From NCBI GenBank assembly GCA_963708075.1, contig OY970194.1, positions 2,176,001 to 2,240,000 of the forward strand: 64,000 bases of DNA. Reading direction: 5' to 3'. The notes under the pieces are model-generated. The model saw only the letters and a list, made by a program, of their open reading frames with translations. It was not told where the DNA came from and did not search any database. The translations under genes and the position numbers were made by a program. Below are positions 56,532 to 64,000 of the stretch, piece after piece (positions within the stretch are counted from its first letter, which is position 1; each line of letters starts with the position of its first letter). Source of the stretch: Sedimentisphaerales bacterium (GTDB lineage: Bacteria; Planctomycetota; Phycisphaerae; Sedimentisphaerales; Anaerobacaceae).

Positions 56532-57743
56532 ATGTCTCGCAAACTCAGCACTTGTGTTGTCTGCCTCTTCACAGTCTTCTCTTTGCTTTGCCCCGTGGCG
56601 ACCGCCCAGTCACGCCCCGGGAAGAAAATCATCGAGTACGGCTGGGACGTGCCCTATCCGGACTTCGTGCGTGACAACATCCGCGAGATGGAGAAGCGAC
56701 CCTTTGAAGGGATCATTTTCCGAACGAAGGGATTCGACCACGCCTTCGACGTGCGGCCGTGGAACAAGGCGGACCTCCAGCCGCAACTGGACACGCTGGC
56801 CCAGATCAAATGGGGCAAGTTTACGGACAATATGCTCACCCTCTATGCGGCCAACAAGTGGAACATGGACTGGTTCAACGATGAGCACTGGAAGGTCATC
56901 ACAGAGAACATGAAGCTGTTCTCGCTGGCCCTTAAGAGCGGCAACTGCGTGGGCGTGTGCTTCGATCCCGAGCCGTACGGCCAGGACCCATGGGCGTATC
57001 CCGGCTCCTACAAGGACAAAGCCTTCCCCGAGGTTGCCGAGCAGGTCCGCCGGCGGGGACAGCAGTTCATGGCCGCACTGCAGGAGCACAAGAGCGAATT
57101 GAAGGTCCTGAGCTTCTTTCTCATGGCCCTGTTCCGCGACATCGTCGATGAGCCTGACCCGAATGTCCGGGCCCAGAGGTTGCAGAAATACTCCTACGCC
57201 CTGCTGCCGGCGTTCGTCGTGGGCATGCTCGAAGGCGCCTCGCCCGGCACGATCCTCATCGACGGCAATGAATCCGCGTACTACCATGAGAACTCGCTCG
57301 AATTCTACAAGGATTACCACCTGATGCGTCAGCGGGGACAGGCCCTCGTGCCGGAGGCGCTCCGGAAGAAGTACAACACGAACGTGCAGGCCGGCATAGC
57401 CCTGTATATCGATCAGACGCTCGCCAGGCGCACCGATCGCAAGATCACAAGCAACTTCCTGAGCCCCGACCAGCAACTGAAGTTTTTCGAGCACAATGTG
57501 TACTACGCTCTGACTGCAACTGATGAGTACGTCTGGTGTTACAGCGAGCGCATGAACTGGTGGCTTCCGGCCGAGAAGGCGGGTCCCAACGGGGCTTTGC
57601 CTCCCGGCGTGGAGGAGGCCTTGGTCTCAGCCCGGCAGAAGTACGACGCGGGCAAACCCCTCGGCTACGACATCAGCGAGATGATCCAGGGCGCACGTGA
57701 AGCGAGGCGAAAAGCCGAAGCGGATTCCAGGAAGATGCCGTAA
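56532..57743 (+). CDS. Secreted hypothetical protein
   Basis: GGAGG + ATG, signal peptide, 403-aa ORF with KKIIEYGWD and FDPEPY; no function recognised. Confidence 0.8.
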   Translation: MSRKLSTCVVCLFTVFSLLCPVATAQSRPGKKIIEYGWDVPYPDFVRDNIREMEKRPFEGIIFRTKGFDHAFDVRPWNKADLQPQLDTLAQIKWGKFTDNMLTLYAANKWNMDWFNDEHWKVITENMKLFSLALKSGNCVGVCFDPEPYGQDPWAYPGSYKDKAFPEVAEQVRRRGQQFMAALQEHKSELKVLSFFLMALFRDIVDEPDPNVRAQRLQKYSYALLPAFVVGMLEGASPGTILIDGNESAYYHENSLEFYKDYHLMRQRGQALVPEALRKKYNTNVQAGIALYIDQTLARRTDRKITSNFLSPDQQLKFFEHNVYYALTATDEYVWCYSERMNWWLPAEKAGPNGALPPGVEEALVSARQKYDAGKPLGYDISEMIQGAREARRKAEADSRKMP

Positions 57744-57773
57744 CTCCTGTGACAGAAAAGGTTAGCGCTCTTC

Positions 57774-57802
57774 TTGCAGAGGCGGGCGGCCTCGTGTAAA
57801 GT
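57774..57802 (+). promoter_or_regulatory. tRNA promoter
   Basis: TTGCAG-17 nt-TAAAGT. Confidence 0.55.
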
Positions 57803-57814
57803 AATGTGAAGCCC

Positions 57815-57899
57815 GGAGCAGTGGCCGAGTGGCTCAAGGCGGCGGTCTTGAAAACCGTTGTACCGAAAGGTACCGGGGGTTCGAATCCCTCCTGCTCCG
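57815..57899 (+). tRNA. tRNA-Ser(TGA), CCA not encoded
   Basis: GGAGCAG/CTGCTCC acceptor stem, anticodon loop CT-TGA-AA, long variable arm GTACCGAAAGGTAC, GGTTCGAATCC. Confidence 0.97.
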
Positions 57900-58025
57900 T
57901 TTCATCAGCGGTAGTCGTGTCTACACATCTCACCACGATTTGCTATTTTCACAGAATCTTTCGCTTCGTGACAAAATACGTAGTTTTGCATATTGACACT
58001 GCGTCCGTCGATGGGACAATGGAGA

Positions 58026-58156
58026 CTGTCGCTCGTGCAACATGATACTAAATTGGTTTCAATCGGAGTGAAACTGACATCAAGGCACGCAGCGACGGGG
58101 AGAACAGGGTGATGAACGACTGCCTTCGGGGAGTATTCCCTGTGTCTCCCTTTTTT
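58026..58156 (+). ncRNA. Candidate two-hairpin small RNA
   Basis: Upstream TTGACA-16 nt-GACAAT; long interrupted hairpin; second hairpin with C-UUCG-G loop ending in T6. Confidence 0.65.
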
Positions 58157-58291
58157 ATTTCCCGCCGTCAGACCATGCCCGATCTCGCCGATTTGTACGG
58201 AAGCGATTCATAGGAAAGATCGCCGGCGTCTCGCAGTACGAGGCGACAGCGATCTCTCTTCGTGGTATTCGCTTGCAGAGGTTACGATCCG

Positions 58292-58420
58292 CTAGTGATC
58301 GACCGTGACCTCAATCTGCTGAGTATCGGTGCTGAGATGAACGTCTTCGTCGGCGTCGATCTTGCAGCCGGCCAGGACTATGCCAACGAGAAAGAGGAGG
58401 CAAACGAGCAGCCATTTCAT
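58292..58420 (-). CDS. 42-aa lipoprotein
   Basis: GGAGGG RBS; MKWLLVCLLFLVGIV-LAGC lipobox; acidic mature peptide. Confidence 0.72.
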   Translation of the reverse strand: MKWLLVCLLFLVGIVLAGCKIDADEDVHLSTDTQQIEVTVDH

Positions 58421-58657
58421 GCGTGTACCCTCCATGGGCACAGTGCAGTTCCCATTTCCGATGCGATGCAACATACATCGCTCAAATACCCAGTTCACGT
58501 GACGCAGGACGAGACGCGGACGCCTGCCTGCGCCTTGCGAAAGAGTACGCCTGCTCAGGGACTACCGGCACCCATCCTTTTCCCTATGTGAGGGAAGGCA
58601 TTTGCCGAGACATGGGCGGCCGGTGGGATGTGGAATGAGGGGTTCCCCGCGAGTGAG

Positions 58658-58915
58658 TTACTCCTTGAGCAGCGGCTCGGAGTCCTCCTCCTGCTCGGGC
58701 GGCTCCTCGCGCGAGATCTTCTCGATGCGCTTCTCGGCCTTTTGCAGGATGCCCCGGCAGTGCTTGATCAGGGCCATGCCCTTCTCGTACTGATCGAGGC
58801 TGTCCTGCAGGGGAATCTCGCCCTGCTCGATCTTGCTCACGATGTCCTTGAGCTGGTGGATCGCCTGCTCGAAGGTCAGCTTGTTGATTTCGTCGCGGTA
58901 TTTTCGTTCAGTCAT
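58658..58915 (-). CDS. xseB: Exodeoxyribonuclease VII small subunit
   Basis: LTFEQAIHQLKDIVSKIEQGEIPLQDSLDQYEKGMAL...AEKRI. Confidence 0.95.
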   Translation of the reverse strand: MTERKYRDEINKLTFEQAIHQLKDIVSKIEQGEIPLQDSLDQYEKGMALIKHCRGILQKAEKRIEKISREEPPEQEEDSEPLLKE

Positions 58916-58926
58916 GGGGTCTGCTT

Positions 58927-60339
58927 TCAATCATCGGATGCATCCGGGGTCTCGGTGTCGGCCTTGAGTTCCCTTTTCAGTTTGTCCGTAACCCGGCTTT
59001 CAATCAGATTATCATTGGCCAGCTCGGTCACCAGGAGATCGTCCGTCCGGACGTCCTCTGTGGTCCGCACGACCCGGCCCGTCTGCTTGTTCATCGTTAT
59101 GCTGTAGCCGCGGTTGAGAACCGACTTGGGGTTCAGAGCGGCCAAGCGATTCTCTCCCGCGGTGATTTTCAGTTCCCTGTTGCTCAGGACTCGCGTGACC
59201 GCGGCGAGGCTGCGGCCCTTCAATTCGTTCAGCTCCACCATCATCCTGCCGAGCAGCCGGTGCGGCTCAATTCTCGCGACCTGCTCGTAATAGTCCTGCA
59301 TCAGCTTCTGCGTCCGGATGAGCACCGTCCGCATGGCATCGCCGAGGTCCCACGTCAGATCGTCGAGATACTGCTCGCGATTGAGGACCGGCAACAAGGG
59401 AGTCCGGAACACAGCGCTGGCCAGAACAGTCCGCAGGTATTCGCAGGAGATGTCATGCCGGGCCCGCATACTGCCAGTCAGGCGTTTCTCCTGGTGAACC
59501 AGGTCACTGAGCACGTCGTCCACATTCGGCACGGCCACCACGCCCGCCTTCGTCGGCGTCGAGGCCCGGGCATCCGCCACCAGGTCGGCCACGGTCACAT
59601 CAACCTCATGGCCTACGGCGCTGATGATTGGAATCCGTGAGGCATAAATGGCGCGGGCCAGAACTTCCTCATTGAAGGCCCACAGGTCCTCCAGCGATCC
59701 GCCGCCCCGGCCGACAATCAGCACGTCCAGCTTCAGTCTCTCATTGCGCCGGTTCACGTCGCCGATAGCGGCTGCAATGGCCTCGGCCGCCCCCGGCCCC
59801 TGCACGGGCACCGGGTATAGATACAGCCGCGTGCACGGCCAGCGGTTGTGAACGCTGTCGGCGATGTCGTGCACCGCCGCGCCGGATTCGCTGGTCAGGA
59901 TGCCGATGCGCTGCGGATACTTCGGCAGCGGTTTCTTGTGCGCATCGGAGAAGAGCCCCTCCGCTTCGAGCTTCTTGACCATCTGCTCGAACGCCAATTG
60001 CAGGGCGCCCATGCCCGCCGGCATCATCTCCTCGACGATCAGCTTGTACCGGCCCTGCGGCACATACAGGTCGATGTTGCCGCTGACCACGACGGCCAGG
60101 CCGTTCGCAGGTTTGAATTTCACCCGGGCAAAGCTCGTCCGCCACATCGCACACGGCAACACCGATTCCTCGTCCTTGAGGCAGAAGTAGCGATGGCCGC
60201 TGCCGTGCTCTTTCCAGTCGGTGATCTCGCCTTTGACGGTGATCCACGCCGGCAGGTGGGTGTCCAGCACCTCCTTGACCAGCGAGTTGACCTGCGTAAC
60301 CGTGTATATCTTCGTTCTTGTCTGTGCCTGTGTCTGCAT
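58927..60339 (-). CDS. xseA: Exodeoxyribonuclease VII large subunit
   Basis: SGHRYFCLKD, LEAEGLF, GRGGGSLEDLWAFNEE, SAVGHEVD, STPT, VLNRGYS. Confidence 0.97.
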   Translation of the reverse strand: MQTQAQTRTKIYTVTQVNSLVKEVLDTHLPAWITVKGEITDWKEHGSGHRYFCLKDEESVLPCAMWRTSFARVKFKPANGLAVVVSGNIDLYVPQGRYKLIVEEMMPAGMGALQLAFEQMVKKLEAEGLFSDAHKKPLPKYPQRIGILTSESGAAVHDIADSVHNRWPCTRLYLYPVPVQGPGAAEAIAAAIGDVNRRNERLKLDVLIVGRGGGSLEDLWAFNEEVLARAIYASRIPIISAVGHEVDVTVADLVADARASTPTKAGVVAVPNVDDVLSDLVHQEKRLTGSMRARHDISCEYLRTVLASAVFRTPLLPVLNREQYLDDLTWDLGDAMRTVLIRTQKLMQDYYEQVARIEPHRLLGRMMVELNELKGRSLAAVTRVLSNRELKITAGENRLAALNPKSVLNRGYSITMNKQTGRVVRTTEDVRTDDLLVTELANDNLIESRVTDKLKRELKADTETPDASDD

Positions 60340-60480
60340 GAGCGTTCTCAGTGAGCGGCCATCCAACGGAAACCACGTTGCCCAAAGCCATTATAAACGA
60401 TGGCCCCCCTATTCACAACCACCCGTGGTTCAAGCTGTATGACTACTCACGCAGGTTCCGAGCGGTTCTTCTGCACTTGT

Positions 60481-60582
60481 TGTCATCCTGAACGGAGCGT
60501 AGCGGAGTGAAGGATCTGGCCCGTGCACTTGAGAAGCCTCTCGTTCGTTACCCAGATCCTTTGCCTTCGGCTCAGGATGACA
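60481..60582. repeat. REP-like palindromic element, family A
   Basis: TGTCATCCTGAACG...GAAGGATCTGG / CCAGATCCTT...CTCAGGATGACA. Confidence 0.88.
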
Positions 60583-60619
60583 TAGTCCTGCCTCTGGAAG
60601 GTCCGCCCATCGATATCGA

Positions 60620-60957
60620 TCATCTCCTACGGCTGACTCTGAGGACGTAAACCGCAAATTCGCCCCGGACTGGAACCTGGATCAGCCCATCGCGGCAGGC
60701 AACTTTGGCCACCGGAGTACCGAATATGGCCTTGGGATCGAGCAACTCAACCGTATCACCATCACGGAGCAAATCGTCGGTCTTTACGTCGACTGCATCT
60801 GCTTTACCCCAGTTATAGACAGCCAGATATAGCCGGTTCGGATCGTATTTGTTCGGCAGCAGGATGGATTTGTCGCCCATCGGACGCGCTACGTTCTCCG
60901 CGAGGGCGAGATTGTCCTGCTGGACGGCCTTGCGGTAACCATACTACGTGCACACAT
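60620..60957 (-). pseudogene. Internally deleted gene remnant
   Basis: AAAAGGAG + ATG 60957 (MCARS...) is out of frame with a stretch of about 107 codons (YGYRK...PNKYDPNRLYLAVYNW...) that reads like the C-terminus of a larger protein. Confidence 0.55.
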
Positions 60958-61008
60958 CGCGGTAATCTCCTTTTGAATCGAGAGCCTCCAAACCATGAAG
61001 CCTGACAG

Positions 61009-61080
61009 GTCATTCCCGCGAAGGCGGGAATCCATCCACCTATCGAACGGTCCTGGCCTCCCGCCTGCGCGGGGGTGACA
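61009..61080. repeat. REP-like palindromic element, family B
   Basis: GTCATTCCCGCGAAGGCGGGAATCCA...CCCGCCTGCGCGGGGGTGACA. Confidence 0.9.
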
Positions 61081-61268
61081 TAATGAGGTTTACTCTGTCA
61101 GAGGGTCACAAGTCAGGACCCTCGGTTTTCTCTTGCTCGTCCGGCGGGCACGGGGTTAGTATCGTTCCTGATCGCCGCCGGTGATCGGCCTCTTGACAGA
61201 TTACCGCCGGGCGAGGCAAACATCCATATGGAAAACGAGCGACTGCAATGCTCAAAGGAGACGACATC

Positions 61269-62549
61269 ATGTCACGCATCCGACACGAACTCCCATGCGT
61301 CACGACCATTCTGCTGGCGAGCTTATTCACAGCCGTGGGCGTCGCCCAGGAGGCGAACTACGATGAGGCGAAGGTGCCCAGGTACACGTTGCCTGACCCG
61401 CTGGTCTGTGCGGATGGGACGAAGGTCACGGACGCTCAGACGTGGCAGCAGAAGCGGCGGGCGGAGATTCTCAAGCTCTTTGAAGAGCACATGTTCGGCA
61501 AGGCCCCGGGCAAGCCGCAGGCGATGACGTTCGTCACCACGTCGGTCAGCAAGAACGCCCTCGACGGCCGAGCCACACGCAAGGAGGTCACGGTCTACTT
61601 CACCGGCCGTGAGCAGGACCCGAATATGAGCATCCTGATCTACCTGCCCAACAGCGGGCCCAAGCCGGTGCCGCTGTTTATCGGGCTGAACTTCGGCGGC
61701 AACCACGCGATCCACACCGACCCGGGCATCACGATCACCAAGAGTTGGATGCGCAGCGACGGCGACCACCGTGCGACGGCGGACTCCCGCGGCAAGGAAG
61801 CCAGTCGTTGGCCGGTGGAGCGCATCCTCGAACGCGGCTACGGCCTGGCGACGATCTACTACGGCGATATCGACCCCGACTTCGACGACGGCTTCAAGAA
61901 TGGCGTTCACCCGCTGTACTACAAGGAAGGCCAGACCAAGCCTGCCCCGGATGAATGGGGCTCCATCGCCGCCTGGGCCTGGGGCTTGAGCCGGGCACTG
62001 GATTATCTTGAGACTGATCCGGACGTCGATTCCAAGCGCGTCGCCGTCATGGGCCATTCCCGACTCGGTAAGACTGCCCTATGGGCCGGGGCGGAGGACG
62101 AACGATTCGCCCTGGTGATCTCGAACGATTCCGGCTGCGGCGGTGCAGCCCTTTCCCGCCGGGCGTTCGGCGAGACCGTCGAGCGCATCAACAAGTCCTT
62201 CCCCCACTGGTTCTGCGACAACTTCAACAAGTACAACGGCAAAGAAGATGAGTTGCCCATCGACCAGCACGAACTGATCGCCCTGATGGCGCCGAGGCCT
62301 GTGTACGTGGCCAGCGCCGAGGAGGACCGCTGGGCCGACCCGCGAGGCGAGTTCCTCTCCGCCAGGGACGCCACGCCTGTCTACAAGCTCTTCGGCAAAG
62401 AGGGCCTGCCCGCCGAGGACATGCCCGCCGTCAGCAAGCCGGCGATAGGCACCATCGGCTACCACATCCGCCCCGGCAAGCACGACGTCACCAACTACGA
62501 CTGGGATCGTTACATGGACTTCGCCGACATGCACTTGAAGGCCAAATGA
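61269..62549 (+). CDS. CE15 glucuronoyl esterase-like protein, secreted
   Basis: [59 protein letters not shown]. Confidence 0.92.
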
Positions 62550-62570
62550 GAACCTGAGCAGGAGCAGACT

Positions 62571-63878
62571 ATGAGAGTTGGACTGTCTGTCAATCGGTTA
62601 TGGCTACCCGCCATGCTGTCGCTGTTCGCCATCGGCGCCACTCGCGCGGCGTCGGAGTCGGCGTCGATAGCGGAGAAGTATGTGCCCAGGCTGGAGAAGA
62701 TTCTCACGGAGAACATCGAGCCGTTCTGGCATGACAAGAGTCTGGACCGGCAGAACGGTGGGTATATCATCAGCTTCGACCAGCAAGGGAAGTTGAAGGA
62801 GCCGGTGACGAAGATGATCGTCACACAGGCCCGGCAGGTGTGGCTGTTCTCACGGCTGGCCAGAGCGGGCTATGAGCCGCAGAAGCATCTGGAGGCCGCA
62901 AAGCTCGGGTATCGGTTTCTGAGAGATAAGATGTGGGACTCGACAAACGGCGGGTTCTACTGGGAGGTGGACATCACCGGCGACAAGAAGCTCAAATCAA
63001 ACAAGCACCTCTACGGCCAGTCCTTCGCACTCTACGCGATTTCCGAATATGCGCTCGCCAGCGGGGACAAGGAGGCCTTGGACTTCGCCATCCGCTTCTT
63101 CAACCTGCTGGAAGAGAAGTCTCACGACAAAGTCCACGGCGGCTATATCGAATCATTCAGTCCGGACTGGACTCCCCTGCCCGCAAGCGACAACTCCTAC
63201 ATGGGCGCGCCCTCGGACCTGAAACTGATGAATACGCACCTGCACCTGCTTGAAGCGATGACGACGTTCTATCGCGCCAGCAAGCTGCCGGCCGCCCGCG
63301 AGCGGCTGCTGGAGCTGATCAATATTGAGAGCAACACCGTCGTGCGAAAGAACCTCGGCGCGTGCACCGATAAGTACGACCGGGACTGGACGGCGAGGCT
63401 GGACAATAACTACGCCCGCGTCTCCTACGGCCACGATATCGAGAACATCTGGCTGCTGATGGACGCGTGCGACGCTGCGACCCTATCGAACTACCCCTTC
63501 ATGGACCTGTACAAGACGCTCTTCGAGTACTCGCTGAAGTACGGCTACGATGCGGCCAACGGCGGCTTCTACTATACCGGCCCGTTCAACGCCCCCGCCG
63601 ACGACCGCAGCAAATCCTGGTGGGTTCAGGCCGAGACAATCGTCAGCGCCCTGCACATGCACCAGTACACGAAAGACCCCAAGTACTTGTCGATCTTCGA
63701 GAAGACCTTTGAGCTGATCGAGACAAAAATGGTGGACTGGGACACCGGCGAATGGTTCGGCACCATCACGCCCGAGGGCCGACCGCAGGGCGACAAGGCC
63801 AACCCGTGGAAGGCCGGCTACCACAACGGCCGGGCCATGATCGAATGCATTGAAATCCTCAAGGCCTGGAAGAACTGA
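62571..63878 (+). CDS. AGE-family epimerase (cellobiose 2-epimerase-like)
   Basis: QARQVWLFS, KHLYGQSFALYA, MNTHLHLLEA, SYGHDIE, WWVQAE, WKAGYHNGRA. Confidence 0.92.
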   Translation: MRVGLSVNRLWLPAMLSLFAIGATRAASESASIAEKYVPRLEKILTENIEPFWHDKSLDRQNGGYIISFDQQGKLKEPVTKMIVTQARQVWLFSRLARAGYEPQKHLEAAKLGYRFLRDKMWDSTNGGFYWEVDITGDKKLKSNKHLYGQSFALYAISEYALASGDKEALDFAIRFFNLLEEKSHDKVHGGYIESFSPDWTPLPASDNSYMGAPSDLKLMNTHLHLLEAMTTFYRASKLPAARERLLELINIESNTVVRKNLGACTDKYDRDWTARLDNNYARVSYGHDIENIWLLMDACDAATLSNYPFMDLYKTLFEYSLKYGYDAANGGFYYTGPFNAPADDRSKSWWVQAETIVSALHMHQYTKDPKYLSIFEKTFELIETKMVDWDTGEWFGTITPEGRPQGDKANPWKAGYHNGRAMIECIEILKAWKN

Positions 63879-63911
63879 CCTGCATGAAACAGCGTTGAAA
63901 GGAACCAAACG

Positions 63912-64000
63912 ATGTCCGACTTGAAGAACCGTATCCTGGGGATTCTTCAGCAGCCGCAACTGGCCGGGTTGGCAACGATCACGCAGGACGGCAAGCCTTG
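63912..64000 (+). CDS. 5' end of a probable pyridoxamine 5'-phosphate oxidase-family protein (partial)
   Basis: AAGGA + ATG; MSDLKNRILGILQQPQLAGLATITQDGKP. Confidence 0.6.
   Translation, partial: MSDLKNRILGILQQPQLAGLATITQDGKP

Follow-up and report, generated by a model that had tools for sequence, protein, structure and literature searches.

Between a tRNA-Ser gene and a convergent lipoprotein-like ORF, the window (the whole 64,000-nt stretch of DNA analysed here, from genome G000) holds what is close to certainly a real, conserved RNA gene, whose transcription at this site is predicted. The features of the locus are as follows.

57814-57900, + strand: tRNA-Ser(UGA), merely adjacent; found at 8 of the 19 close homologue loci
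57972-57988, + strand: putative operator CAAAATACGTAGTTTTG, with core AAATACGTAGTT at 57974-57985 and TACGTA 16 nt before the -35 box
57993-57998, + strand: -35 box TTGACA; TTGAC invariant in 19/19 aligned promoters
58012-58020, + strand: extended -10 element TG-G-GACAAT (TG 58012-13, GACAAT 58015-58020); A2, A4 and T6 invariant
58026-58156, + strand: small RNA, type A copy; start placed at 58026-58028 by inference, end at the U6 tract
58028-58096, + strand: hairpin 1 (core helix P1, UGAU/AUCA, apical stem)
58062-58068, + strand: apical loop AUCGGAG, candidate CsrA site with GGA at 58065-67
58097-58156, + strand: hairpin 2 and U6 terminator tract (GGGAGA-ACAGGG / CCCUGU-UCUCCC, UGAUGA bulge, UUCG cap)
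58214-58258, - strand: strong hairpin (-27.5 kcal/mol for a 60-nt stretch) behind the lipoprotein gene
58292-58420, - strand: convergent 42-aa lipoprotein-like ORF (LAGC), outside the RNA system

The first-pass annotation had described a TTGACA box and an extended GACAAT element separated by a 16-nt spacer, preceded by a near-palindrome; the promoter is present at 57993-58020, and the near-palindrome is CAAAATACGTAGTTTTG. Promoter-like sites near the RNA number 3 in 3 kb, compared with 1.1 in shuffles. The fold predicted for 58022-58157 on the + strand reaches -50.8 kcal/mol (z = -4.49, 0/200 shuffles as good), and the - strand fold of the same stretch has a z of -3.59. Both hairpins and the U6 tract named earlier recur in this fold with every helix, but two details had to be redrawn: hairpin 1 closes at 58028/58096, because G58097 pairs in hairpin 2, and beneath the CC-UUCG-GG cap lies an internal loop with the UGAUGA bulge. 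P1, the core helix of the family, pairs 58028-58038 with 58085-58096 around one bulge. In the apical loop the GGA is 98% unpaired according to the fold prediction, with an A three bases before it, where two would be ideal. A simple terminator scan did not list hairpin 2. The absence of a credible ORF also held, as the overlapping short ORFs lose their start codons or shift frame in homologues; a 9-codon or 34-codon peptide was likewise rejected by eye.

Transcript evidence comes from one study, the soil metatranscriptome X20, in which one 151-nt contig spans 58015-58165 and differs from it in 2 places; apart from cover of the tRNA, nothing else falls in 57750-58700. Because this contig overhangs the predicted start by 11 nt and the U-tract by 9 nt, and a DNA run (X5) contains a similar 151-nt piece, it may represent DNA or a longer transcript. 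Of the 15 records that align to 57905-64000, only 2 reach a similarity of 95%. Overlapping the operator, at 57948-57977, is another promoter-like site (TTCACA-18-CAAAAT), and AATCTT at 57955-57960 is conserved in close homologues; these may form an upstream promoter or a second protein site, which could explain why the RNA contig starts at 58015.

It had further been suggested that the RNA could act with the 42-aa lipoprotein gene; a related reading takes it for an antisense regulator or antitoxin of the lipoprotein. The two are arranged convergently in the window genome and in loci L092 and L137. However, 136 nt and a separate hairpin, likely the 3' end of the lipoprotein gene itself, lie between them; among the 15 close homologue loci whose downstream sequence extends for 580 nt or more, the gene comes after the RNA in 2 and is absent from the other 13; and in relatives it stands apart, its homologues in G013 and G007 being located at xseB, away from the RNA copies of those genomes. 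Neither the overlap nor the linkage to a small toxin gene that would mark a type I antitoxin is seen here. The suggestion thus finds no support, and an antisense role appears hardly credible. The ORF has no Pfam match. Lipoprotein homologues ending in QVEVTVQQ (L022, L007, L018) lie behind xseB and before tRNA-Leu in other members of the genus, so that a rearrangement has occurred between the lipoprotein gene and the RNA; the RNA was sought in relatives through synteny with xseB and with tRNA-Ser and was not found.

The terminator-like hairpin at the end of the RNA, the early start of the X20 contig and a 288-aa ORF downstream in the sense direction in 6 of the 19 close loci (xseB lies directly there in 1) would all suit a cis-acting leader, either a riboswitch or attenuator for the downstream gene or merely a terminator of the tRNA-Ser transcript. 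Yet the downstream gene is convergent in the window and in many other loci and is of many unrelated kinds, with no consistent same-strand gene of one function as a riboswitch or attenuator class would have; in addition, a conserved promoter belongs to the RNA itself, and most family loci lack the tRNA. We consider such a leader or terminator very improbable. Inspection by eye of the 420 nt that follow tRNA-Ser(UGA) in 28 relative genomes showed no copy of the RNA. Integrase-like sequence was seen by eye directly 3' of this tRNA in L036, L043 and L048 (G001, G002 and G005), so the tRNA looks like an insertion hotspot. Upstream of it in the window, the protein encoded at 56532-57743 (+) has 403 aa, begins with a signal-peptide-like stretch and matches no Pfam family.

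Homologues and distribution of the RNA family

The hairpin 2 pattern gave 106 metagenome matches, 19 of which are homologues; the remaining 87, including L118, L132 and L180, which had passed the first filter, were dropped as chance matches. Alignment A1 consists of 18 full-length close homologues and the window copy. Upstream of the RNA, its promoter boxes are conserved, the spacer and the 6 to 8 bases after the -10 box vary freely, and conservation resumes at 58028, which places the RNA start at about 58026-58028. Within the RNA, 97.6% of 615 cells pair and 15 cells changed on both sides compared with 4.2 in shuffles, although the pair-level counts are weaker (52/500 shuffles as high) and the search pattern had fixed part of hairpin 2. 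The 19 close metagenome homologues keep the -35 and -10 boxes and the fold while the neighbouring genes change, so the RNA is a stand-alone gene. The earlier proposal of a stand-alone small RNA of about 130 nt is thus borne out by conserved boxes with free spacers, by covariation in a conserved structure and by shuffled neighbours.

None of the known classes compared here accounts for this RNA. Rfam found only tRNA in the whole window and nothing credible in 57700-58700 at E-values up to 10; 20 family loci at the gathering score and 5 at loose E-values, covering both type A and type B copies (defined below), matched no family. The RsmY model reached 11.6 bits on the wrong strand against a cut-off of 57. 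It had been stated that the RNA is not SRP, 6S or tmRNA, and indeed no such model matches it and the true copies lie elsewhere in G000: 6S (77 bits) at C1:379861, small SRP RNA (71 bits) at C1:1130030 and tmRNA at C1:4734368. Like these and Y RNA, which are housekeeping RNAs of the abundant type, the family has a similar size and strong promoters, and its type B copy is distributed likewise; unlike 6S, SRP RNA and tmRNA, it matches no model and is not limited to one copy in the genome, and unlike the host of a Y RNA, G000 (93% complete) has no Ro60/TROVE match. K-turn or C/D box elements, hammerhead, fluoride and c-di-AMP riboswitches and the SRP Alu domain were rejected by eye against their familiar consensus patterns. 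The available text of the literature on small RNAs and CsrA in Planctomycetes, Sedimentisphaerales and Phycisphaerae, PMC13443453 included, does not describe the RNA, and the supplementary motif lists of RNA screens could hold the motif.

BLAST with the RNA gave nothing in 40 relatives and only short matches in 400 genomes of the class (best E 6.5e-4), two of which (G259 and G409) later proved to be true homologues. Covariance model R1 revealed a paralog in G000, but under strict filters it picked up distant copies in just 4 of the 40 relatives; the broader model R2, built from 43 diverse rows, was needed to go further. In the R2 alignment, 91.7% of 903 cells are paired, with 58 double changes compared with 24.7. 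Matches to R2 occurred in 27/29 genomes of family f1 and 4/4 of f7 (31/33 in these two Sedimentisphaerales families) and in 0/7 of f2, f5 and f8; G001 and G013 supplied training rows for R2, yet hold further copies. A core pattern run over 301 genomes of the order found 61 matches in 45 genomes, all in f1 or f7, whereas the reversed control gave 2. A further 40 genomes of f2 to f6 and f8 yielded only five weak short matches (f2, f4, f5 and f8; 17.7 to 20.3 bits), and a sample of 149 other genomes from the phylum a single weak one under strict filters (24 bits); all were set aside as terminator- or fragment-like. The GTDB-wide pattern gave 66 matches, of which 56 carry planctomycete labels and score 49.9 to 108 bits; the other 10, at most 21 bits, were dropped. 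Viral contigs gave 0 matches.

After fragments L296-L298 and some later-found copies were excluded, 126 distinct RNAs were kept from 172 matches. Their genomes are labelled Sedimentisphaerales, Anaerohalosphaeraceae, Phycisphaerae or other Planctomycetota, and the genes flanking the loci are diverse and in both orientations. Copies of every type share the sequence of P1 and of the terminator-helix base, an invariance of the core that is partly built in by the search patterns. Whatever its function, the RNA is an uncatalogued family, near-universal in two families of Sedimentisphaerales.

Palindromic and operator-bearing copies

The copies fall into types that differ in promoter and loop. The 58 rows of type B share a CCNNGG loop; their promoter is close to consensus and lacks the operator, and P1 encloses two small hairpins. 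The hexamer in the loop reads CCGCGG (51 rows), CCAUGG (3), CCUAGG (2), CCCGGG (1) or CCGUGG (1), so that all variants, on about six separate branches, are self-complementary, one of them through G-U. A six-base palindrome occurs in the loop region of 67 of the 99 operator-less rows, compared with 33 expected from shuffles. Related copies L269, L272 and L277 lost it, and a stray CCACGG occurs in L285 outside the type B loop.

We infer from this pattern that the type B loop would form a kissing homodimer. As in the kissing loops of HIV-1 DIS and HCV 3'X DLS, in the available descriptions of these, the hexamer stays self-complementary through its changes; unlike in those RNAs, the palindrome is absent from the window copy and from all 25 operator copies. 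The kissing-loop dimers in the literature available to us are mostly those of viral genomes, and the type B dimer here is predicted. Natural bacterial RNA dimers are described as rare, and the persistence of the palindrome through some six separate changes suggests one here.

Type A, to which the window copy belongs, comprises 32 rows in one weakly supported group (84/71), 25 of them with the strict operator and 0/25 with the palindrome; 36 rows have neither. All eight A-bearing genomes searched with R2 (G000, G001, G013, G259, G409, G484, G492 and G584) also hold a B copy, so the A copies are extras. G000 itself has three copies. Besides the one in the window, the copy at C1:5132447-5132577 + (L197/L280) has the same operator and four ANGGA sites, and that at C1:6059091-6059220 + (L279) is a type B paralog with a consensus promoter and a CCGCGG loop, making it a candidate kissing-dimer RNA. 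L290 and L292-L294 (G001, G016, G014) form a third, long-branched subtype with GGAGGA in the apical arm and with neither operator nor palindrome.

In all 23 operator rows outside G000, TACGTA lies exactly 16 nt before TTG, where the filter allowed 16 or 17. The core AAATACGTAGTT fits 9 of the 10 specified positions of the GerE consensus RWWTRGGYN2YY, as given in the available text of PMC2695774; a 7-2-7 NarL-type reading fits some copies but was rejected, since its right half is degenerate in the g20 copies. A matrix built from the 23 rows marks 157 sites in G000, 9 of which have a -35 box at the same offset, compared with a 0.42% background, and 5 of the top 11 matrix sites are among these 9. 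Some operator-bearing promoters precede long ORFs with signal-peptide-like starts (by eye), and the sites point to an undescribed regulon, part of which consists of such genes. As regards activation by a GacA/UvrY orthologue, which marks the Csr/Rsm RNAs, G000 offers the positioned GerE-like operator and 14 LuxR-type domains. Small LuxR-type genes, two of them confirmed by Pfam, lie beside the A copy of G013 (L195). The operator would be the activator site of a LuxR/GerE-family protein. Nine further sites of this operator on C1 of G000 are at 1510725(-), 2055260(-), 6365689(+), 7418062(+), 4377335(+), 1424069(-), 4885215(+), 6546997(-) and 2055901(+); several stand directly before a -35 box, and some are tandem TACGTA repeats 10 bp apart. 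By eye, the A copies L093, L113, L114, L163 and L232 also lie among small stand-alone LuxR-type genes.

Candidate CsrA sites and the proposed function of the window copy

CsrA is present in 79/80 genomes, with one in the C1:1009819 region of G000, where FliW, Hfq and Ro60 gave no match (93% complete). FliW was found in 0/53 genomes of f1, 0/20 of f7, 17/18 of f2 and 0/28 of other families, and no full-length RNA was found in the FliW-bearing f2. Residue 55 of CsrA is K in 9/9 RNA-positive genomes and N in 3/3 FliW-positive ones; N55 is needed for FliW binding, according to the available text of 10.1101/2020.07.02.184341. Four genomes with neither RNA nor FliW have K, K, D and N. The anti-correlation of RNA and FliW may amount to about one evolutionary event, because f3 to f6 and f8 have neither and the RNA-negative G034 and G241 also have K55. 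Separately, L380 (G334) has three CsrA copies, the best with Asn55, and no match to FliW or to the RNA. RNA antagonists of CsrA are treated as gammaproteobacterial in the available papers, and FliW is suggested for Planctomycetes in the available part of PMC4682653. For two large families that have CsrA and no FliW match, the RNA family supplies named, short candidates for CsrA control.

All 25 distinct operator-bearing RNAs contain A(N)NGGA outside the terminator base (strict ANGGA in 21/25), compared with 47 of the 101 other RNAs, mostly as paired ACGGAG in B copies; ANGGA at the terminator-helix base of B copies, where all its bases are predicted to pair, was left out of the count of CsrA sites. 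Of 19 diverse type A rows, 18 retain the apical GGA although they differ in the sequence on either side of it, in the N base (U, C or A) and in the length of the arm. Only L197 departs from this, with AGA at the apical position and four ANGGA elsewhere, three of them at least 0.6 unpaired; two lie in the loops of small hairpins, CGCU-ACGGAU-AGCG and GCGCC-ACGGAU-GGCGC (CACGGAUG/UACGGAUA), which suggests L197 as the best CsrA-sponge candidate among the three G000 copies. The commonest type A motif, CA-ANGGAY-UG, can form the ANGGAN hexaloop described for RsmE in the available text of PMC7652899; around the motif, L207 has UACA/UGUA and the g20 copies UUCA/UGAA. Sites predicted to be open occur in 14/25 operator rows, 1/58 palindrome rows and 12/43 others (7 of these 12 being type A by tree), compared with 24% of 500 shuffles, and the Fisher p of 1.7e-5 overstates the difference because the rows are kin. 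The other 11 of the 25 operator copies, ten from g20 and L230, have no predicted-open A(N)NGGA, their GGA being predicted as paired.

That the looped GGA could bind CsrA had been one option of the first-pass annotation, and it is plausible. The best reading of these data is that the window copy is an inducible CsrA decoy that would bind through its looped GGA, although we hold it at slightly less than an even chance. An activator of the LuxR/GerE family, sitting on the operator immediately before the -35 box, would switch on the type A copies and a small regulon; the two stacked helices would serve as a stable scaffold holding the GGA loop outward; CsrA dimers would be drawn off GGA-containing ribosome-binding sites, and the targets would be translated. 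Having one good site per molecule, the RNA would make a weak sponge by itself and would act jointly with its paralogs, such as L197 with its four ANGGA. The A(N)NGGA in every operator RNA, the apical GGA retained in type A, the enrichment of open sites relative to the palindrome copies, hosts that have CsrA with K55 and lack FliW, and the likeness to RsmX/Y/Z in size, paralogs and activator site would favor a decoy, although the type A members are not independent, because type A is one weakly supported group. The 11 operator copies lacking an open site and the roughly single event behind the anti-correlation with FliW count against it. Also against it, the GGA of the window copy is predicted to lie in a 7-nt loop and not in an ANGGAN hexaloop, as a single exposed site; extra loop bases can lower CsrA affinity and known antagonists carry many sites, according to the available texts of PMC7652899 and 10.1101/2020.07.02.184341.

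The near-universal B copy shares the scaffold with almost no open GGA, so the scaffold probably exists for another reason. One possible, on balance doubtful, account is that the shared two-helix scaffold binds another protein or complex, the A copies being regulated extras of the B RNA and their GGA incidental or structural. The sequence kept in P1 and the terminator-helix base, the near-universal occurrence of the B-type or a similar plain-promoter copy, its presence in all eight A-bearing genomes, and the prediction of the GG in G-U pairs in g20 are consistent with this account; yet it leaves unexplained the GGA that survives remodelling of the arm and the four sites of L197, it lacks a partner, with no Ro60 and no Hfq match, and the core invariance behind it is partly search-built. 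A broader scenario, which we regard as unlikely, is that a housekeeping RNA of a new class in two Sedimentisphaerales families, with a palindromic kissing loop, was duplicated, and that the duplicates lost this loop and gained CsrA loops and a LuxR activator, giving Planctomycetota an independent Gac/Rsm circuit on a reused scaffold after the loss of FliW.

An Hfq-independent base-pairing RNA, with the GGGUGAUGAA bulge or the apical loop as mRNA seed, is less probable still. Most type A copies and several others without the palindrome retain GGGUGAYGAA, partly unpaired, in which the seed could lie, but the RNA is mostly paired, G000 has no Hfq match, and the B copies have GGCCYACAA at that place.

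RsmX/Y/Z are of similar size, occur as several paralogs and have an upstream activator site. Returning to the decoy reading, the window RNA may work like RsmX/Y/Z of Pseudomonas, but it is not a Csr/Rsm member, because it matches no model and has too few sites. Like RsmX/Y/Z and the enterobacterial CsrB/CsrC, as the available texts of PMC7652899 and PMC4682653 describe them, it is a stand-alone, noncoding RNA with an intrinsic terminator, several paralogs, a GGA (here predicted to be looped) and an upstream activator site (here inferred), in a host with CsrA and without FliW. Unlike them, it does not carry many GGA sites in many small hairpins; the window copy has one predicted-open site, and the family one or two on a long rigid helix with no Rfam match. 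Its operator abuts the -35 box and is unlike the UvrY palindrome, and the RNA belongs to another phylum, where it is kin to a scaffold RNA without an open GGA.
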